Positions 1-7,062 of a stretch of DNA of 7,062 nt are shown in pieces. Where the stretch lies: positions 1-7,062 of the IMG/VR virus record IMGVR_UViG_2778261641_000004; one strand, given 5' to 3'. The stretch comes from a virus. Lineage: Duplodnaviria; Heunggongvirae; Uroviricota; Caudoviricetes. The position numbers and the translations under genes are program-made. Under the pieces are notes generated by a model, which was given only the letters and a program-made list of their open reading frames with translations, was not told the origin of the DNA and did no database searches. Within the stretch, counting starts at the first letter, position 1, and each line of letters begins with the position of its first letter.

Positions 1-873
1 CTGGAAATCCTCGGTACATTCATCGCGGGTGTCTGGGTATCCAAGGTTCTGGGGGCTTTCGGAAAAATATCAGGTTTACCGGTCCCACCCTGGCTTAAAT
101 TGTGGGCGCTTTACGCGGGCTATATTGTTAGCGACAGAGAAAATATTGCCGATAGCGCAAAATCTTCACTGAGGTATACGAAGCGAATTATCGGCGACAC
201 GCTGGCTGCTATTGGTATAAAAACAGATATCGGACGCAGGGATGTCAGTGAGGTCCGTGAATGGCCTGCGTGGATGGACTGGTTGCACGGGGGCCCCGGT
301 AAAGTTATCCGGCAGGGACAGAGTAACGGTGTAGTGCATGGCTCCAACGTCCAGCCCGACATCCCCGGCGGCGGTACTCTTGCTGATCGCAACAATAACC
401 CCGGGAACATTCGCCCGGTGAGCGGTAAAGGGTTCCGGTTTTTCGAATCAGCTCTTGAGGGCTGGGAGGCGATGAAAAACCAGCTCATGCGTTACTTTAC
501 CGGGAAAACAACCGGACGGGCATTACAGACTATTCAGGATATTGTCAGTACCTGGGCCCCGGCAGGTGATAACAACGATCCGAAAAAGTATGCACAGGAT
601 GTTGCGAAATGGATGGGAGTATCACCGAATGCAATATTGAATCTTACAGATCCCCAGACTATGGGTGCATTGATGCAGTCGATGGCGCGAAAAGAAGGTT
701 ATTCAAACTGGAACAGCCCGCTGGCGTATCAGGCCGCCGCTGGCAGCCTTAACCAGCAGACTGTTATAAATGTTCATGGAGTTAACAACCCTCAGGAGGC
801 GGCTAATCTGATCGCTGACAAGCAGGGGGCTGTAAATGCCAGGGCGGTACAGCAATTGAAAGGACCTGCGTAA
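1..873 (+). CDS. C-terminal part of a large tail protein, probably tape measure protein (5'-truncated by window edge)
   Basis: Frame 1 is open from base 1 (no stop before the TAA at 871-873), so the ORF starts upstream of the window. The first ~45 aa are hydrophobic (LEILGTFIAGVWVSKVLGAF...), followed by a Gly/Pro-rich region and a globular-looking C-terminus. It sits immediately upstream of the tail/baseplate genes and its stop overlaps the next start (TAATG). Confidence 0.5.
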   Translation: MEILGTFIAGVWVSKVLGAFGKISGLPVPPWLKLWALYAGYIVSDRENIADSAKSSLRYTKRIIGDTLAAIGIKTDIGRRDVSEVREWPAWMDWLHGGPGKVIRQGQSNGVVHGSNVQPDIPGGGTLADRNNNPGNIRPVSGKGFRFFESALEGWEAMKNQLMRYFTGKTTGRALQTIQDIVSTWAPAGDNNDPKKYAQDVAKWMGVSPNAILNLTDPQTMGALMQSMARKEGYSNWNSPLAYQAAAGSLNQQTVINVHGVNNPQEAANLIADKQGAVNARAVQQLKGPA

Positions 874-1523
874 TGGACTTTTTATCTGTTTTACTGCAGC
901 AGCGAACCCGCTCAATAGGAATCATTATTCCTGATGTGGTTATTACCGAAAAGCACACTGACGCCCTAGAAATTACGGAACATCCGGTTGAACAGCCCAC
1001 GAATGCTGGTGCCAGTGGTGAGGGCGCTGGTTATATATCAGAACACGCATTCAGGCGCCCTTCTGAGGTTGTGATGGAAACCGGTTTTTCCGGAGGCGGA
1101 TCGCTGCTTGATTTTGCCAGTAACCTGACGGCTACCAGTTTACTGGGTCTGAGCCCGAAAGAACTGTATCAGGAGTTGCTTAATCTGCAGCGGGATCGTA
1201 TTCCTTTCGATGTGACAACCGGCAAGCGTATTTACAACAATATGTTGATAAAAACGCTGGAGGTGACGACTGACAAGAGTAGTGAGAATGTGCTTCTGGC
1301 GACCCTTACCCTCAGGGAGGTGATTATTACCTCCACGCAGTCAATCAGGGTTGCCTCGAAAAACAATATGACCGAGGGAGTCGGAACGTCTGCTGTGCAG
1401 AATACAGGCACCAAAACAACGGTGCCGCCGAATAATTCCATTCTGAAATCGCTGCCACAGATAGCGCAAAAAGGTGTCACCACTGTCGATGGGTATCTGA
1501 GCAATTTATTTCTGGGAAGGTGA
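873..1523 (+). CDS. phage tail/baseplate assembly protein, function unassigned (216 aa)
   Basis: ATG at 873 overlaps the upstream stop (TAATG) with AAGGA 8 nt upstream. Position between tape-measure-like and hub-like genes suggests a tail assembly role; no family motif recognised with certainty. Confidence 0.45.
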   Translation: MDFLSVLLQQRTRSIGIIIPDVVITEKHTDALEITEHPVEQPTNAGASGEGAGYISEHAFRRPSEVVMETGFSGGGSLLDFASNLTATSLLGLSPKELYQELLNLQRDRIPFDVTTGKRIYNNMLIKTLEVTTDKSSENVLLATLTLREVIITSTQSIRVASKNNMTEGVGTSAVQNTGTKTTVPPNNSILKSLPQIAQKGVTTVDGYLSNLFLGR

Positions 1524-1526
1524 TTC

Positions 1527-1829
1527 ATGGAGGCCGTAGAAATCCCACTGGTTGCTGACAATCAGACTTTTGCCACCACAATTAACGGTACGGTTTATCA
1601 ACTGTCTGTCATCTGGCGCGGAGAGTACTGGGTTCTGGATCTTGCTGACAGCAATGGTTCCGCCATTATCTCAGGCATTCCGATGATTACGGGTGCTGAC
1701 CTGTTGGCGCAGTATCGATATATGAATCTCGGGTTTTCGCTGGTGGTACTCTGCGACGTGGCAGGGCAGGAAAACCCGACGCAATTCGATCTTGGAACGC
1801 TCTCACACCTCTATGTTTTCACGGAGTAA
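1527..1829 (+). CDS. small phage tail-associated protein, function unassigned (100 aa)
   Basis: ATG at 1527 lies 3 nt after the upstream stop with GGAAGG 6 nt upstream, and is tightly packed in the same operon. No recognisable LysM or other motif. Confidence 0.45.
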   Translation: MEAVEIPLVADNQTFATTINGTVYQLSVIWRGEYWVLDLADSNGSAIISGIPMITGADLLAQYRYMNLGFSLVVLCDVAGQENPTQFDLGTLSHLYVFTE

Positions 1830-1831
1830 CA

Positions 1832-2863
1832 ATGTCGAAAAACTGGATGCGTCACTTTGAATTATTGCTTGTTGATGATAAGGGCGACGGGATAAAAATT
1901 TCTGAGCTTAAAGTCACTTTCAATATTCAGAAAATGCCTGCGAGCATATTTAATGGATTCGTTGGAAATTTTAAGGTTTATAACCTGTCCCCTACCACTC
2001 AGAATCGGATTATGCAAAAGGAGTTTTCGCGTATACAGGTTATTGCCGGATACAAGGGGCAACCGGATGCAGCAGGTAATTATCCTGATGAAAACGTTGG
2101 TATGATATTCAATGGAGATATCCGTTTTACTGTCACTGGTAAAGATAATGCCACAGACAGTTGGATCATGTTGCAGTGTATTGACAGCTGGGAAGGTCAC
2201 CTGAACGCAAGTGTGAAAACCACAGTGGCAGCTGGCTGGAAGTACAGCGATCTTTTCAGTCTGGGTATGAAATCATTCGAACCATATGGCATCGAATCCG
2301 GTGCAGTTCCTGACATGCCGGAAACGGTATTCCCCAGAGGTCGCGTTGTTTATCAAAACACATCAAGGTTGATGAATCATATCGCAGGGCAGTGTAAAGC
2401 TAACTGGTGGTATGAAAATAATCTGGTAAATATTGTTCCTGAAGATAAATATATTGGTGTTGCTACGGTGTTGAATGCTAACACCGGGCTTATCGGTATG
2501 CCACAGCAGACGATGGGCGCTGGCGTAAATGTCAGATGTCTGATTAATCCAAATATTAAGCTCGGTGGGCTTATTCGTCTGGATCAGGCATCTGTATACC
2601 GTGCCTCTTTGAGTAATGACCAGGTAGCGAAATCGCCAGCACGACTGGATGAGTCTGAAAGCGACGGTAATCTCTACGTTAACGGTCTGCCAGGCATGTC
2701 ACAGCCTGCCAGCATTAATACTGACGGTGATTACATTGTGGGCAGCATTGATTATACTGGCGATACCCGAGGGCAGGCGTGGTATATGGACCTGCTTTGC
2801 CTGGCTAAAGGTGGCAAAGAATTGCTTAACTCGAAAGGGATTGATGCGGAGAAATACACATGA
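1832..2863 (+). CDS. baseplate hub-like protein (P2 gpD / Mu gp44 / T4 gp27-like), 343 aa
   Basis: GGAG 5 nt upstream of ATG 1832. The N-terminal pattern (AGYKG...IFNGDIRFTVTGKDNATDSWIMLQCID) and C-terminal pattern (GAGVNVRCLINPNIKLGGLIRL ... GDYIVGSIDYTGDTRGQAWYMDLLCL) resemble hub (late control D) proteins as I remember them. Not verified by search. Confidence 0.5.
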   Translation: MSKNWMRHFELLLVDDKGDGIKISELKVTFNIQKMPASIFNGFVGNFKVYNLSPTTQNRIMQKEFSRIQVIAGYKGQPDAAGNYPDENVGMIFNGDIRFTVTGKDNATDSWIMLQCIDSWEGHLNASVKTTVAAGWKYSDLFSLGMKSFEPYGIESGAVPDMPETVFPRGRVVYQNTSRLMNHIAGQCKANWWYENNLVNIVPEDKYIGVATVLNANTGLIGMPQQTMGAGVNVRCLINPNIKLGGLIRLDQASVYRASLSNDQVAKSPARLDESESDGNLYVNGLPGMSQPASINTDGDYIVGSIDYTGDTRGQAWYMDLLCLAKGGKELLNSKGIDAEKYT

Positions 2864-3195
2864 AAAGACCATTGTTGACAGTTTTACTTGTCTGTATCTC
2901 CTTCATTTCCTTTGCTGATACCGGTTGCGGACCATTTACGATCAACTGGAAAGCGCAAGACGGACTTGCAAGGATTAATGGACAGAAACCGGAGACACAG
3001 AAAATCATCTTTCTCAAACAGGAAGGTGATTATGACAATGTGAACATCCAATGGATGATTCCGGGTAATGGGCGTTGGTTAGGGATGGATTTTGTGGCCA
3101 GAAATGGCAAGCCGATCCTCAACGTTGAAGTTATCCGCAAAAATATGGACGAGCCTCGGGAGTTCTGGACGTATGATTGCCGGAAGGTTAAATGA
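2860..3195 (+). CDS. small secreted (periplasmic) protein with Sec signal peptide; candidate moron / superinfection-exclusion-type protein (111 aa)
   Basis: ATG overlaps the hub stop (ATGA). The N-terminus MKRPLLTVLLVCISFISFA is a classic signal peptide (basic n-region, hydrophobic core, SFA cleavage motif). There is no canonical lipobox. The mature part has two Cys (near residue 23 and near the C-terminus). The gene is AT-rich and is followed by an intrinsic terminator. Confidence 0.6.
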   Translation: MKRPLLTVLLVCISFISFADTGCGPFTINWKAQDGLARINGQKPETQKIIFLKQEGDYDNVNIQWMIPGNGRWLGMDFVARNGKPILNVEVIRKNMDEPREFWTYDCRKVK

Positions 3196-3210
3196 TCTTG
3201 CCCTCTCCGT

Positions 3211-3234
3211 AACCCACCGTCAGGTGGGTTTTTT
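3211..3234 (+). terminator. rho-independent terminator (T1) closing the TMP-hub-secreted protein transcription unit
   Basis: Perfect 8-bp stem AACCCACC / GGTGGGTT with a GTCA loop, followed by a T6 tract (3229-3234). The hairpin overlaps the last codons of the convergent mnt-like gene. Confidence 0.75.
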
Positions 3235-3540
3235 GTTTAGCAGTTCTCTCAACTTTTCGTTCTGCTCTCTGAACTTTTCCTGTATTTCTTTTTGCATGGC
3301 GATAACCTGGGCTTGAAGTTGAACTAGCGCATCAACATTTAGCGGAACCGAGACGCTGTTGATTTTGTCTGCTATTTCCCCAAGAGTATTTTCTGCATTC
3401 AAGGCATCTTCCAGTATCTGCACAATCTCTGAGTTCATTGATCTGCCGTTACGTTTAGCTCGTTCAGCTATAGCATCTCGCATTCCTGCAGGAAGCCTGA
3501 TATTGAACCTATCCATTTCATGACTAGGGAACTTGCTCAT
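3220..3540 (-). CDS. mnt: Mnt-like ribbon-helix-helix (Arc/MetJ superfamily) repressor with C-terminal coiled-coil (106 aa)
   Basis: DRFNIRLPAGMRDAIAERAKRNGRSMNSEIVQILEDAL aligns with remembered P22 Mnt (HFNFRMP...ANGRSMNSELLQIVQDAL). The C-terminal heptad-like region (LQAQVIAMQKEIQEKFREQNEKLRELL) is consistent with Mnt tetramerisation. GAGG lies 6 nt upstream of the ATG on the - strand. Confidence 0.8.
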   Translation of the reverse strand: MSKFPSHEMDRFNIRLPAGMRDAIAERAKRNGRSMNSEIVQILEDALNAENTLGEIADKINSVSVPLNVDALVQLQAQVIAMQKEIQEKFREQNEKLRELLNKKPT

Positions 3541-3574
3541 ATGACCTCAATGTAAAGATGTTTGCTAAACAATA

Positions 3575-3630
3575 GCACCAACTTGACATCAAAATAAATG
3601 GTGTTAAATTGGTTCTAGAACCAAGTTGGT
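3575..3630. promoter_or_regulatory. divergent promoter/operator region between mnt-like and arc-like genes (putative Pant plus operators)
   Basis: Perfect -35 TTGACA (3583-3588), a 16-nt spacer, then extended -10 TGtTAAATT (3602-3610) facing arc/ant. A 16-bp perfect palindrome TTGGTTCTAGAACCAA (3609-3624) overlaps the -10 and predicted +1. A 9-bp inverted repeat ACCAACTTG (3577-3585) / CAAGTTGGT (3622-3630) overlaps the -35. The - strand promoter for mnt could not be placed confidently. Confidence 0.55.
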
Positions 3631-3651
3631 ATCATTGTGGGAGGATTACTT

Positions 3652-3825
3652 ATGAAAGATGTGCTTTACACAGGTCGTAAAAGTCAAAGTTTCCAGCTTC
3701 GTTTGCCAGCGCGAATGAAGGAGGAGATTAGACGTGTTGCTGAAATGGATGGAATTTCTATCAACTCTGCGATTGTGCAGCGACTGGCTAAAAGCCTGAG
3801 AGAGGAAAGAGCTAATGCCCAATAA
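3652..3825 (+). CDS. arc: Arc-like ribbon-helix-helix repressor (57 aa)
   Basis: SFQLRLPARMKEEIRRVAEMDGISINSAIVQRL resembles remembered P22 Arc (QFNLRWPREVLDLVRKVAEENGRSVNSEIYQRV). GGGAGGA (3639-3645) lies 6 nt upstream of ATG 3652. The GTG start at 3637 in the ORF track lacks an RBS. Confidence 0.75.
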   Translation: MKDVLYTGRKSQSFQLRLPARMKEEIRRVAEMDGISINSAIVQRLAKSLREERANAQ

Positions 3826-3898
3826 AAATAGTGAAGCCCGGCAGTGCGCGAACACAAACCGGGCCTCTATGTCAGTAACCGTATGCAAGGAAACTAAC

Positions 3899-4525
3899 AT
3901 GAATATTGTAGCAAAATCAGATTACAACTTCCACGGAGTTGAGTTGGTGCCCACCCGTGATATGCATGGTGTTTGGTTTACGTCATCTAATATTGCATCT
4001 GCACTTAAATATGCAAATAGCCGTGCAGTAACAATGATTTATAACAAGTATAGCGATGAGTTTAGCGCCGGAATGACTCAGGTACTCGAAGTGAGTACCT
4101 CAGGAAATTATCGCAAAAAAGTGCGAGTTTTCTCACTACGCGGTGCCCACCTAATCGCGATGTTTGCTCGCACTCCGGTAGCCAAAGAGTTCCGCCGCTG
4201 GGTGCTGGATATTTTGGATCGGCAGGCAGAATGCTCACCGATTGCAAAACAGTTCACTGACGAAGAGCTGGTTAATCTCTGCTACTTACAATTGTGGATG
4301 GAGAAGAGTCAACAAATGTGCAAACACATCTACCCAGGAATGAAGCAAATTGGTTCTGAGCTTTCAGGAAGGATTTACGATATTGCATATGAGACTCGCT
4401 ACATGTCAGAAGAAACCAAGAAATCACTTCTTCGTGAAATGAAGAATCTTGATACCAACAATTTTGTCGTAAAGAACGCTCAGCCAATGCTGGCAAAACT
4501 TCGCGGCGAGGAATGGATTCATTGA
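3899..4525 (+). CDS. ant: phage antirepressor, BRO-N/Ant-type N-terminal domain (209 aa from ATG 3899; possible upstream start at 3815)
   Basis: YNFHGVELVPTRDMHGVWFTSSNIASALKY ... LRGAHLIAMFARTPVAKEFRRWVLDIL matches the BRO-N/antirepressor pattern (F.F..IR...G.PWF.A.DVA.ALGY ... A..F..WV). AAGGA (3887-3891) lies 7 nt upstream of ATG 3899. The gene is immediately downstream of arc, as in P22 immI. Confidence 0.7.
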   Translation: MNIVAKSDYNFHGVELVPTRDMHGVWFTSSNIASALKYANSRAVTMIYNKYSDEFSAGMTQVLEVSTSGNYRKKVRVFSLRGAHLIAMFARTPVAKEFRRWVLDILDRQAECSPIAKQFTDEELVNLCYLQLWMEKSQQMCKHIYPGMKQIGSELSGRIYDIAYETRYMSEETKKSLLREMKNLDTNNFVVKNAQPMLAKLRGEEWIH

Positions 4526-4540
4526 TTGGTGCACAGGACG

Positions 4541-4574
4541 GCGCAAAAGAAAACCGCCAGTGTGCTGCTGGCGG
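4541..4574 (-). terminator. reverse-strand rho-independent terminator in the ant - antirepressor-2 intergenic region
   Basis: Perfect 7-bp GC-rich stem CCGCCAG / CTGGCGG (4554-4560 / 4568-4574) with a 7-nt loop. On the - strand it is followed directly by TTTTCTTTT (complement of + 4545-4553). On the + strand it is followed by CCTATGTCAC, with no U-tract, so it is oriented for leftward transcripts only. Confidence 0.6.
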
Positions 4575-4618
4575 CCTATGTCACACCCTTACTACCACAT
4601 AAGGAATGCCTAATGACT
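4545..4618 (-). ncRNA. candidate sar-like antisense RNA overlapping the RBS and start codon of the second antirepressor-like gene (hypothetical)
   Basis: Candidate - strand promoter inside the 5' end of the 4613 gene: -35 GTGACA (+ 4648-4653), 17-nt spacer, -10 TACATT (+ 4625-4630), predicted start near 4617-4619. The transcript would run leftward across ATG 4613 and SD 4601-4605 and end at the - strand terminator, giving about 70-75 nt. This is inference only. Confidence 0.3.
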
Positions 4619-5338
4619 TTTAAGAATGTAGCAAACATCGGATCCGTTGTCACGGATAAAACCATTGACAGCCAAAGTCTTCTGATGATGGTTAATGAAG
4701 CTCGCAAGTTATGTGGAGAGCCATCAGTACGTAACAACAAATTCATCGAGAAAATTGAGGATGAATTGGAAGGCGAGACCTACACAAAAAGTGTAGGTCG
4801 GAAAAACGGGGCTGACATTGATGTTATCTCCATGACTATCAAGCAGGCGCTTCGTGTTGCTGCTCGCGAATCTAAAGCAGTTCGCCGCTCACTTGTAGAC
4901 CAACTTGAAAGTATGCAAGAAGCGCACATTAAAAGCGGTAAATCGTCGAGTGGACTTGTTGAGTATCGCCAGGCGCGAACATTGAAAATGACGGTTGAAG
5001 CTGTTACCAATCTGTTCGATTTGATGCCAAATCTTGCGCCGGAAGCAAAGCAGACCGCGGCCGCAAGCATAATCAACCCGATCGTTGGTTTTAATGCAAT
5101 ACCCCTTCCGGCAATAGAAGAGCATTACTACTCAGCAGGGGAGGTTGCAGAGCAGCTTGGAGTAACGGCCAACAAGATTGGTCGCATTGCTAACGCAAAC
5201 AACCTCAAAACTGAGCAGTACGGGAAGTTCTTCCTGGATAAATCGGCGCATTCCAGCAAACAGGTGGAAGCATTCCGCTACAATGCGGAAGGTGTTAAAG
5301 CACTACAACACCTGGTTCATGGGAGTAATGTTGCATAA
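4613..5338 (+). CDS. second antirepressor-like / phage regulatory protein (Rha-like N-terminus, KilAC/ANT-like HTH C-terminus), 241 aa
   Basis: AAGGA (4601-4605) lies 7 nt upstream of ATG 4613. The N-terminus (TIDSQSLLMMVNEARKLCGEPSVRNNKFIEKIEDEL) resembles Rha-family regulators. The C-terminus (YYSAGEVAEQLGVTANKIGRIANANNLKTEQYGKFF) resembles the KilAC/ANT antirepressor C-terminal domain. The TTG start at 4526 in the ORF track has no RBS and would read through the hairpin. Confidence 0.5.
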   Translation: MTFKNVANIGSVVTDKTIDSQSLLMMVNEARKLCGEPSVRNNKFIEKIEDELEGETYTKSVGRKNGADIDVISMTIKQALRVAARESKAVRRSLVDQLESMQEAHIKSGKSSSGLVEYRQARTLKMTVEAVTNLFDLMPNLAPEAKQTAAASIINPIVGFNAIPLPAIEEHYYSAGEVAEQLGVTANKIGRIANANNLKTEQYGKFFLDKSAHSSKQVEAFRYNAEGVKALQHLVHGSNVA

Positions 5339-5559
5339 TGGCAAAGAAAAAATATGGCATTATGCCGCCAAGAATCAAAGGAAGAGCCATGGTAAAAGGC
5401 GATGCTGGGAGATATCACATTCTTGGTGTTTTGTGGCATGAGAGAGCTTTAATTTTAAGCAGACCTCATGGGTACATTGAAAAGGTATCTATAGATAGAA
5501 TTGAGATTCTTCCCCTTACTCCTGAAGAAGAAGAAACGTACGGACTTTTTGATAACTAG
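5338..5559 (+). CDS. small hypothetical protein (73 aa), translationally coupled to the antirepressor-like gene
   Basis: ATG 5338 overlaps the upstream TAA (TAATG). It has a basic N-terminus (MAKKKYGIMPPRIKGR) and an acidic C-terminus (TPEEEETYGLFDN), and is followed by terminator T2. No family recognised. Confidence 0.45.
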   Translation: MAKKKYGIMPPRIKGRAMVKGDAGRYHILGVLWHERALILSRPHGYIEKVSIDRIEILPLTPEEEETYGLFDN

Positions 5560-5570
5560 CCAATTCACTA

Positions 5571-5594
5571 AACCCAGCTTCGGCTTGGTTTTTT
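5571..5594 (+). terminator. rho-independent terminator (T2) at the 3' boundary of the accessory module
   Basis: Stem AACCCAGC / GCTTGGTT (one mismatch or bulge) with a TTCG tetraloop, followed by a T6 tract. It matches T1 at 19 of 24 positions. Confidence 0.7.
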
Positions 5595-5613
5595 ACTTTC
5601 TGGAGACATATGA

Positions 5614-6369
5614 ATGCCCGTTTCTTTAAGCGATCAACTTGGTAGCAAAGAACAGGCCGATGTAAGACTTGCTGGCTCTGTCATGTCGGCGCTGCGTGTT
5701 TCTATGCCCGGCATCGTCCAGTCATTTGATCCGGACACGGTAACAGTGGTTGTTCAACCTGCGATTAAAGGCTATGAGCCGGACTCAAATGGAATCAACC
5801 AGTCGACGACATTACCCCTGCTGGTGGATGTGCCGGTGGTATTCCCGCGCGGCGGCGGCTGCACGTTAACTTTCCCGGTGAAAGCCGGCGATGAATGTCT
5901 GGTGATTTTTGCCGATCGCTGCATCGATTTCTGGTGGCAGAACGGCGGGGTACAGGAGCCTGTCGATGACAGAATGCATGATTTATCGGATGCGTTCTGT
6001 ATCGTCGGTCTGCAGTCTCAGGCGCAGAAAATCAGCGGAATCAGCACCAGCGCCGCGCAACTGCGTACTGATGATGGCGCTGCGTTTGTGGAAGTGGCCG
6101 CAGGCCATAACATCACGGTTAAAACCCCCGGCGCGCTGACGGCGACAGCAGAAGGTGGGACAACAATCACATCCCCGACTATCACGCTGAACGGCAACGT
6201 AACGATTAATGGCAATCTGTCTCAGGGAATGGGCGAAAGTGGCGGTACTGCGACGATGCTTGGCCCTGTCACGGTGACTAACGATGTAAAAGCTGGTGGT
6301 AAGAGCCTGATGACGCACACGCACGGCGGAGTACAGACCGGCGGCGGTAACACAGGAGCGCCTAACTGA
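5614..6369 (+). CDS. baseplate central spike protein (P2 gpV / phi92 gp138-like, OB-fold N-domain plus Gly-rich beta-helix with His apex), 251 aa
   Basis: GGAG 8 nt upstream of ATG 5614. The N-terminal pattern (LLVDVPVVFPRGGGCTLTFPVKAGDECLVIFADRCIDFWW) is OB-fold gpV/gp138-like. The C-terminus has Gly/Thr-rich repeats ending in KSLMTHTHGGVQTGGGNTGAPN, analogous to the P2 gpV apex (KVLHTHKHPGD...), where the HxH motif binds iron. Confidence 0.8.
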   Translation: MPVSLSDQLGSKEQADVRLAGSVMSALRVSMPGIVQSFDPDTVTVVVQPAIKGYEPDSNGINQSTTLPLLVDVPVVFPRGGGCTLTFPVKAGDECLVIFADRCIDFWWQNGGVQEPVDDRMHDLSDAFCIVGLQSQAQKISGISTSAAQLRTDDGAAFVEVAAGHNITVKTPGALTATAEGGTTITSPTITLNGNVTINGNLSQGMGESGGTATMLGPVTVTNDVKAGGKSLMTHTHGGVQTGGGNTGAPN

Positions 6370-6722
6370 TGCGATACAGACGTGAAGACGCCGATGGCGA
6401 TTATACCTTTGGCAGCGGTGATGACACCTGGCTGATTAACTCACCGGAGGCCGTGGCGCAGGCGGTAAAAACGCGATTCAAATTGTGGTATGGGCAATGG
6501 TTTCTCGATACCACCGAAGGGACTCCGTGGATCCAGTCCGTACTCGGTAAGCAGAAGCCGGAAACCTACAACCTGGCGATCCGTAAGCGCATCCTCGAAA
6601 CGCGGGGCGTTAAATCAATCCTCTCTTTCAATACGACGGTGGATACCACGACCCGACGTGTCATGTTTTCCGCTGAAATCGACACTCTTTATGGAATAAC
6701 GACTGTTACATCGGAGGCGTAA
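6369..6722 (+). CDS. small baseplate wedge protein (gpW/gp25-like or DUF-type baseplate protein), 117 aa
   Basis: ATG overlaps the spike stop (TGATG). Its size and its position between the spike and the baseplate-J gene match gpW/gp46-type proteins. The sequence-level match is not certain. Confidence 0.5.
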   Translation: MRYRREDADGDYTFGSGDDTWLINSPEAVAQAVKTRFKLWYGQWFLDTTEGTPWIQSVLGKQKPETYNLAIRKRILETRGVKSILSFNTTVDTTTRRVMFSAEIDTLYGITTVTSEA

Positions 6723-7062
6723 TGGCTCTGAACCTTGATTCTCTCGGTTTATCTGCAAAGGTAACCGCAGAGGGGATCAGTGCGCCTGATTATCAGACGA
6801 TACTCAGCACCCTGATTAGCTATTTTCAGCAGATTTATGGCAGTGATGCCTACCTCGAACCAGACAGCAAAGACGGCCAGATGGTGGCTCTGATGGCGCT
6901 GGCGATTCATGATGCCAATAATACTGCGATAACTGTCTACAACTGTTTTTCACCGGCAACCGGCTATGGGGCTGCACTGACCAGTAACGTGAAAATAAAT
7001 GGTATTTCACGTAAAGGCGCGACGAACTCTACGGTTGATTTGCTTCTTACAGGAACTGCCGG
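6722..7062 (+). CDS. baseplate J-like protein (P2 gpJ / Mu gp47 family), N-terminal 113 aa, 3'-truncated by window edge
   Basis: ATG overlaps the upstream TAA (TAATG) and the frame is open to the window end. The sequence (DYQTILSTLISYFQQIYG...ATGYGAALTSNVKINGISRKGATNSTVDLLLTG) fits the Baseplate_J N-terminal pattern. It is absent from the ORF track only because it has no stop in the window. Confidence 0.75.
   Translation, partial: MALNLDSLGLSAKVTAEGISAPDYQTILSTLISYFQQIYGSDAYLEPDSKDGQMVALMALAIHDANNTAITVYNCFSPATGYGAALTSNVKINGISRKGATNSTVDLLLTGTA

Follow-up and report, generated by a model that had tools for sequence, protein, structure and literature searches.

In 2008 the name "ant moron" was given to a variable region of P22-like phages, described as being in rapid flux and as transcribed by late messages that continue into the tailspike gene (PMC2629481, Villafane, Casjens et al.). 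Edno5, a relative of the Edwardsiella phage GF-2, is explicitly said to carry ImmI (PMC6372524). A mnt/arc/ant module of this kind is described here in the window, the whole stretch of 7,062 nucleotides of viral DNA at positions 1 to 7,062 of IMG/VR record IMGVR_UViG_2778261641_000004, where it interrupts a contractile-tail baseplate operon between the genes coding the baseplate hub and the membrane-puncturing spike. The segment from about 3196 to 5594 is probably an immI region (ant moron) of the E. coli P22-like type, which recombination has placed in the late tail operon of a lambdoid prophage whose contractile tail is of the E217/SEN34 type, and would work by analogy with P22. The original prediction, that an mnt/arc/ant module resembling P22 immI is carried as a moron in this operon, is supported: the DNA is 95–98% identical to canonical immI blocks, a model that includes the genuine P22 sar recognizes a sar-like RNA, and the site holds variable cargo. 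All six open reading frames (ORFs) that had been listed are present, at the coordinates given below.

The ant morons of E. coli P22-like phages, as in the prophage of E. coli 55989 and in Lederbergvirus JEP4, have the same genes in the same order, 95–98% DNA identity and the same mosaic, high-flux behavior. The part common to P22-like prophages spans 3210-5563. Blocks in 14 complete E. coli genomes match 98% of this length at 94.8–98% DNA identity. The two that were inspected occupy the canonical immI site of P22-like prophages, with DNA-ejection genes on one side and the tailspike gene on the other. JEP4 ant1-ant2-orf73 shows 96.5% identity, and the five module genes are all intact and have the same length as in P22-like prophages. 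Of 80 IMG/VR loci encoding ant2 relatives, classified by tblastn, almost all are immI regions of the P22-like type, with gp16-like genes on the upstream side and a gp9 head-binding domain on the downstream side; a myovirus hub or spike occurs in none of them. The two settings differ in their neighbors, namely a gene-16-type ejection gene and a head-binding tailspike gene for the P22-like ant moron, a hub plus 111-residue protein gene pair and a gpV-type spike gene for the window. They differ also in that P22-like prophages have one more leftward mnt-like gene, located after orf73, which is absent from the window. Note that in some P22-like IMG/VR contigs (L055, positions 3210-7350, L056 and L091) a tandem pair of complete immI units precedes the tailspike gene. 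The ant1-ant2-orf73 unit comes first; the second unit is mnt-arc-ant of the P22 type and has a sar-like element of its own.

Exchange between the two phage types did not end with the arrival of the cassette. Segment-wise comparison, which for ant2 and its spacer was made against L006, L010, L011 and L013, shows that mnt, arc, ant1 and orf73 are 99–100% identical to their counterparts in sibling myovirus prophages. The ant2 gene is 97.4% identical to that of a P22-like prophage versus 88.6% to those of the sibling myoviruses. The stretch 4526-5338, which includes ant2 and the spacer that precedes it, is 97–100% identical to the P22-like prophage, and the spacer is 96.6% identical to the siblings. 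This allele pattern indicates that the cassette recombined with a P22-like immI at least once after reaching the myovirus.

Modules of the same type were found in tail operons of other lambda-like phages. In the lambdoid Edwardsiella myovirus GF-2, an Arc-like (leftward)/Arc-like (rightward)/Ant module that includes a sar-like element is inserted between the tape-measure gene and the baseplate genes. Stx2c siphoviruses (Pankowvirus WGPS8, 2851, 1717) carry the same 106-residue protein gene (94.7% nucleotide identity) together with Arc and Ant, inserted between the genes for a minor tail protein and a C40 peptidase (gpK-like); a sar-like element was found in a Stx2c siphovirus. Both modules have a single ant gene and neither ant2 nor orf73, unlike the window. 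Since immI modules already stand in myovirus and siphovirus tail operons and the ant moron concept dates from 2008, the window is not a new kind of system. It is ordinary module swapping among lambda-like phages, with the cassette almost unchanged. Literature searches found no description of the hub-spike insertion point, of the hotspot at this place, of evidence for repeated podovirus-myovirus exchange or of the candidate second antisense RNA.

The likeness to P22 immI extends to the regulatory layout. Divergent Mnt-like and Arc-like ribbon-helix-helix (RHH) genes flank a strong promoter of the Pant type, whose transcription start coincides with a palindrome, the sar-like RNA has the same promoter geometry and two-hairpin fold, and an antirepressor gene codes for a P22AR_C domain. 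As in P22, the module lies in a Q/gp23-dependent late operon directly upstream of a tail "spike" gene, with terminators on both sides. The window departs from P22 in its 106-residue Mnt-like protein, whose carboxyl-terminal half is unrelated, in the Bro-N that replaces the P22_AR_N amino terminus of Ant1, in the addition of ant2, orf73 and a proposed second antisense unit, in its operator sequences and in its host virion, a myovirus.

The Mnt-like maintenance repressor (106 residues; 3220..3540, minus strand) comprises an amino-terminal RHH and a helical carboxyl-terminal half, and its gene runs leftward, divergent from the ant operon. It matches Pfam Arc at 1.6e-20. In a sequence search of the PDB it is nearer to Mnt (1MNT, 6.7e-8) than to Arc (3.5e-5), and it has 54% identity to the RHH region of P22 Mnt over 37 residues. 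The Arc-like repressor (57 residues; 3652..3825, plus strand) is coded by the first gene of the Pant operon and matches Pfam Arc at 8.3e-12. Its PDB matches place it nearer to Arc (1.8e-5) than to Mnt (0.058), and the same 174-nucleotide gene is annotated by RefSeq in relatives. The Arc/Mnt homology proposed for these two genes is therefore real. Separately, the PDB chain 9pio_G of a recently deposited structure, an "Arc family DNA-binding protein", matches both RHH proteins at ~5e-5.

The best sigma-70 match of the region is found in the mnt-arc spacer. This Pant-like promoter (3583..3610, plus strand; promoter scan, 10 of 12 positions) consists of TTGACA, a 16-nucleotide spacer and TAAATT with an upstream TG, and its position is that of the annotated P22 Pant. 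A perfect palindrome of 16 bp, TTGGTTCTAGAACCAA (3609..3624; repeat finder), extends over the -10/+1 region of Pant and is proposed as an Omnt-like operator; the annotated P22 Omnt has the same place relative to Pant. The palindrome is contained in a 40-bp quasi-palindrome (3597-3636), and there is an outer inverted repeat (3569-3585 / 3622-3638). For the leftward transcript, the extended -10 TGCTATTGT (3569..3577, minus strand), read from the sequence, may belong to Pmnt; the consensus promoter scan did not pick it up.

The antirepressor Ant1 (208 residues; 3899..4525, plus strand) combines Bro-N (1.9e-10) and P22AR_C (2.8e-14) domains and matches PHROG 245 "Ant" at 2e-53, in agreement with the BRO-N/Ant homology first assigned to this gene. 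Its similarity to P22 Ant is confined to the carboxyl-terminal P22AR_C domain (29% identity over 69 residues), while its amino terminus is Bro-N and not P22_AR_N.

The spacer between arc and ant1 aligns to the sar region of P22. The minus strand at 3823-3898, over the ant1 ribosome-binding site, adopts in prediction the same two-hairpin fold as sar (z -5.6), with a 5' hairpin, a terminator hairpin and a U-run. The consensus of six sequences has 19 pairs, four of them with compensatory changes. A covariance model made from P22 sar and eight other elements, from which window-type sequences were left out, gave a single match in the window, at 3823-3898 on the minus strand (47.2 bits, E 7e-8). An Rfam scan of the whole window gave no match to the sar family, only a terminator-like sroH fragment (E 0.93). 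The Psar-like extended -10 TGCTACAAT (3905..3913, minus strand) is placed exactly 7 nucleotides upstream of G3898, and the geometry of P22 Psar is identical, with TGCTATACT 7 nucleotides upstream of the sar start. At the level of sequence and structure, the locus thus appears to have the sar antisense element of P22-type immI regions. The first sar model also matches the arc-ant spacers of myovirus GF-2, of a Hafnia prophage and of a Stx2c siphovirus; the Hafnia prophage carries its immI at the same hub-spike site as the window.

The borders of the insert are narrower than originally predicted. The gene at 2860..3195 (plus strand), coding a secreted small beta-barrel protein of 111 residues, had been counted within the insert, and belongs instead to the conserved backbone, where it is coupled to the hub gene: the start codon and the stop codon of the hub overlap (ATGA), a homologue (25–83% identity) follows the hub gene in almost every one of 50 species-level relatives from Enterobacterales, and in four of these it is the sole gene of the gap (the shortest gaps, 373-421 bp). 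When the window is aligned to relatives whose gap holds other genes, conservation covers the hub, the final ~85 nucleotides of the 111-residue protein gene and the spike ribosome-binding site. The final ~40 nucleotides of the hub gene already differ among relatives. The replaceable stretch, and with it the insert, is ~3196-5594 in these alignments. The model of the 111-residue protein (pLDDT, the predicted local distance difference test score, of 86.6) is a small beta-barrel with a signal peptide and two invariant cysteines, whose fold neighbors are generic avidin-like proteins, none of them informative. The gene itself is mosaic, with amino-terminal two-thirds that diverge among relatives and a final ~85 nucleotides that are almost invariant in DNA.

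In this prophage family the gap between the hub plus 111-residue protein gene pair and the spike gene is a cargo hotspot across Enterobacterales; it measures 373-2845 bp in 50 species and holds 0-2.4 kb of cargo (loci L101-L150, L003, L008, L098 and L099 and positions 2822-5594 of the window were surveyed). Draft E. coli contigs that code for a hub protein identical to that of the window have three different cargos there, namely two unknown genes, an Arc/Arc/single-Ant module, or the five-gene module of the window. The block therefore does not behave as a fixed structural component of the tail cluster, a possibility that the original prediction had left to be checked. It is variable cargo in a Q-type antiterminated late operon, just upstream of the spike gene, with Q and the late operon read in a close relative. 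Immunity I-type cargo is limited to E. coli and Hafnia among the gaps surveyed. Elsewhere the same gap is occupied by YafO and Phd/Doc toxin-antitoxin pairs, Mrr-type nucleases, T5orf172/MUG113, Imm_superinfect and DUF4282 proteins, PD-Lambda-1 (two loci, E 5e-83) and PDC-S57 and PDC-S02 candidates. Such company, together with the frequency of RHH domains in antitoxins and weak matches to FitA, HicB and CopG, would suit a block of anti-phage defence or toxin-antitoxin cargo, in which antitoxin-like RHH regulators control toxic Bro-N and Ant2 effectors that abort infection. This is highly improbable: none of the six proteins of the window matches a PADLOC model, the best RHH matches are Mnt and Arc themselves, and the block is near-identical to a P22-like immI, sar element included.

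Both ends of the module carry terminator-like hairpins. At the left end, an intrinsic-terminator-like hairpin with a T-run (3211..3230, plus strand; terminator scan) overlaps the 3' end of the Mnt-like gene and falls within the block common to P22-like prophages. At the right end of the cargo, alignment with relatives identifies the terminator hairpin CCCAGC-TTCG-GCTTGG followed by T6 (5573..5594, plus strand), in which a G>T mismatch breaks one stem pair (GCTTGG versus GCTGGG in relatives) and might let more transcription from Pant pass into the spike gene. Polymerase modified by Q is expected to pass both hairpins. This mismatch, the absence of the second leftward mnt-like gene and the degraded ant morons that occur in P22-like phages (PMC2629481) would also be found if the module were a recent, functionless passenger, a decaying moron kept in place by its location at a recombination hotspot. 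The state of the module makes such decay very unlikely. All five ORFs are undisrupted and of full length, conservation extends to the promoter, palindrome, sar and sar2 elements, the same architecture is present in at least three independent draft genomes, and the ant2 allele that was swapped in is itself intact.

The chassis in which the P22-like immI stands was judged from a close complete relative, in E. coli LWY24. Its early region has xis/TorI, Ea22, anti-RecBCD, kil, cIII, a helix-turn-helix plus S24 repressor, cII and a Nin region. It also has a Q antiterminator, lysis genes and a single unidirectional late operon that ends at the tail fibre genes and adjoins IntS and a tRNA-Arg gene. 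The tail type had been called unrelated; the host phage itself is a lambdoid with S24 repressor, cII, Nin and Q in this relative, which is the natural setting for immI, and the module meets a foreign element only in the tail. The proteins of the hub, sheath, tube and plug match E217_GP41, E217_gp31_N, Phage_Tube_PhiTE and Pam3_gp18, respectively, and the tail is accordingly of the E217/PhiTE/Pam3/SEN34 type, not that of P2; its gene families are related to those of Salmonella phage SEN34 and of Klebsiella prophages. As to the gpD/gpV/gpW/gpJ label for the baseplate, the gpV-type spike and the gpW-like and gpJ-like products are present, and the hub matches E217_GP41. At the level of the whole window, the best full-length match is one draft E. 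coli contig, which spans it at 97.4%, and no complete E. coli RefSeq genome has at least 80% of it.

The second effector of the operon is less easily placed than Ant1. Ant2 (241 residues; 4613..5338, plus strand) has two uncatalogued modules and matches PHROG 1726 "anti-repressor" at 5e-101. Its AlphaFold model is moderate (pLDDT 71) and consists of two small alpha/beta modules joined by long helices; the carboxyl-terminal one resembles the winged helices of MerR/RacA/BldC (Foldseek, generic, E 0.15). No Pfam or NCBIfam domain was matched, even at E 10. A homology of Ant2 to KilAC proteins, Rha or P22 Ant was considered and rejected: BLASTP comparison with P22 Ant, P22 Rha and a KilAC antirepressor found nothing, and a PDB profile search was empty. 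A profile search of 1.84 billion representatives returned 1171 relatives, many of them over one half only. In 42 such one-half relatives the other half is Bro-N (8), ORF6N (7), KilA-N (7), Rha (4), ANT/KilAC (3), P22_AR_N (2) or AntA (2). These chimeras place Ant2, by association, in the domain-shuffling network of phage antirepressors (Bro-N/KilA-N/Rha/ANT), to which it would belong. The proposal of a second antirepressor-like gene at 4613-5338 is thus favored by the PHROG match and by the domain-shuffling relatives, and lacks the support of any catalogued domain of that network. The ATG of orf73 (5338..5559, plus strand), coding a 73-residue ORFan, overlaps the ant2 stop, and the two genes are translationally coupled. 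The product falls in PHROG 4977, of unknown function, has relatives in only eight clusters among 5.8 billion proteins and gave no PDB, Pfam or NCBIfam match; its gene is present in some P22-like immI regions and absent from others.

The 87-nucleotide spacer 5' of ant2 contains a hairpin that, because an A-run precedes it, is read as a minus-strand terminator. It is the basis of a proposed second antisense RNA, "sar2" (4541..4618, minus strand; terminator scan), which would cover the Shine-Dalgarno sequence and start codon of ant2 and end at the hairpin (4577->4551) and its T-run. The proposed Psar2 (4625..4653, minus strand; promoter scan), with GTGACA, a 17-nucleotide spacer, TACATT and an extended TG, lies within the first ant2 codons and would yield a transcript of ~75 nucleotides from about 4618. 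Psar2 has the same TGCTAYAHT extended -10, and divergent homologues retain its -10 motif. Whichever gene lies in front of ant2, the hairpin accompanies ant2, and it shows three compensatory pairs in ten diverse sequences. The predicted fold energy is marginal (z -1.9) and the 5' part is without conserved structure. Neither sar model detects 4541-4618. A homology of sar2 to sar is accordingly discarded, the arrangement being at best analogous, and sar2 is put forward here as a proposed antisense unit for ant2. More speculatively, the Pant operon could be a switch with two effectors, each paired with a separate cis-antisense RNA: ant1 with sar, and ant2 with sar2, which would have evolved independently. 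In such a dual-effector switch Ant2, with orf73, would represent an antirepressor class not yet characterised, or would act in counter-immunity on a target other than that of Ant1; we consider this rather doubtful.

Under the preferred reading as a P22-like immI region, the module would operate as follows. In a lysogen, the leftward 106-residue Mnt-like repressor would bind the palindrome over the Pant start and keep arc-ant1-ant2-orf73 off. After infection, or upon loss of Mnt, Pant would fire and then be shut down by Arc, while the sar-like antisense RNA would limit translation of ant1 and sar2, if transcribed, that of ant2. Ant1 would bind and inactivate the phage's own cI/C2-type S24 repressor, and probably those of co-resident lambdoids, leading to lytic growth or induction. 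Late transcripts antiterminated by Q would pass both terminators and the module into the spike gene. In this scheme we infer only who binds what, the target of Ant1, any role of Ant2 or orf73 and the existence of the sar2 transcript; the gene homologies, the near-identity to P22-like immI, the promoter, operator, sar and terminator anatomy, the cargo status and the lambdoid context of the close relative are the observations on which it is built.

Several points weigh against it. The lambdoid early region was read in the close relative (L016) and not in the genome of the window itself. Ant1 has only its carboxyl-terminal domain in common with P22 Ant, so that its target is assumed. Ant2 is without a recognised domain and without similarity to P22 Ant, a KilAC antirepressor or Rha. 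The leftward Pmnt is a weak consensus match only. Regulation may differ from that of the P22-like prophages, since the extra leftward mnt-like gene is missing. In the P22-like coliphage Kapi1, mnt is not detectably expressed in lysogens (PMC12922286), and the rules of P22 need not transfer.

A related proposal gives the same parts another purpose. The module may serve mainly in conflict between phages, the Mnt-like protein silencing Pant of superinfecting P22-like phages of the same immI and so shielding the Ant-sensitive repressor of the prophage, and Ant1 and Ant2 inducing or disarming other resident lambdoids. The same immI block circulates in E. coli P22-like prophages at 95–98% identity, and the swapping of alleles shows that both phage types meet. 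Some such prophages (E. coli 55989) carry IntS, and the myovirus relative uses IntS at the tRNA-Arg/yfdC site. Two different effectors could hit different repressors. Trans-acting antirepressors are reportedly known from Salmonella prophages (Lemire et al. 2011). Inter-phage conflict employs the same parts as the P22-like immI reading and is not exclusive of it, and the specificity of either Ant is only assumed; as the main role of the module we regard it as possible, but on the unlikely side.

Two further observations concern the meeting of the phage types. An IntS integrase is encoded both by L016, the myovirus relative, and by L007, the P22-like prophage of E. coli 55989 that carries the same module, at 42748-44141 beside tRNA-Arg and yfdC in L016 and at 11940-12358 in L007. 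If the two share an attachment site, competition for it or its tandem occupation could favor the exchange. The urinary coliphage 906 looks like a myovirus in electron microscopy and has a genome nearest to Lederbergvirus CUS-3 (56% coverage, 96% identity; PMC12945033). It fits the kind of lambdoid myovirus/P22-like hybrid found here.

The genes that flank the module form a rightward run of tail genes, which the six ORFs interrupt between hub and spike. The run begins with the end of a tape-measure/lytic-transglycosylase gene (100-873, plus strand; PHROG 2276 tape measure, 1.9e-57; PHROG 873 "endolysin", 7.5e-48). The whole tape-measure protein, of which 100-873 codes the carboxyl-terminal end, is named "lytic transglycosylase catalytic" in RefSeq, and its carboxyl terminus is lytic transglycosylase-like. 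Two baseplate genes separate it from the hub gene (1832..2863, plus strand; PHROG 196, 4.6e-80; Pfam E217_GP41), the left flank of the hotspot. The right flank is the gpV-type membrane-puncturing spike gene (5614..6369, plus strand; Pfam spike N domain, 2.9e-44, and Apex; annotated by RefSeq in relatives). It is followed by the genes for a gpW-like sheath initiator (Sheath_initiator) and by the start of a gpJ-like gene (Baseplate_J).

The locus is a clean, datable case of a complete regulatory cassette, with its proteins, promoter, operators and antisense RNA, moving at 95–98% identity between podovirus- and myovirus-tailed lambdoids, and a second exchange has since replaced one gene inside the cassette. 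Five genes that are usually annotated as hypothetical get correct names, and two small antisense RNAs are predicted. The hub-spike junction is flagged as a cargo hotspot that elsewhere holds toxin-antitoxin and defence genes. If the dual-effector reading were true, a lambdoid prophage could sense or attack several repressor types at once.

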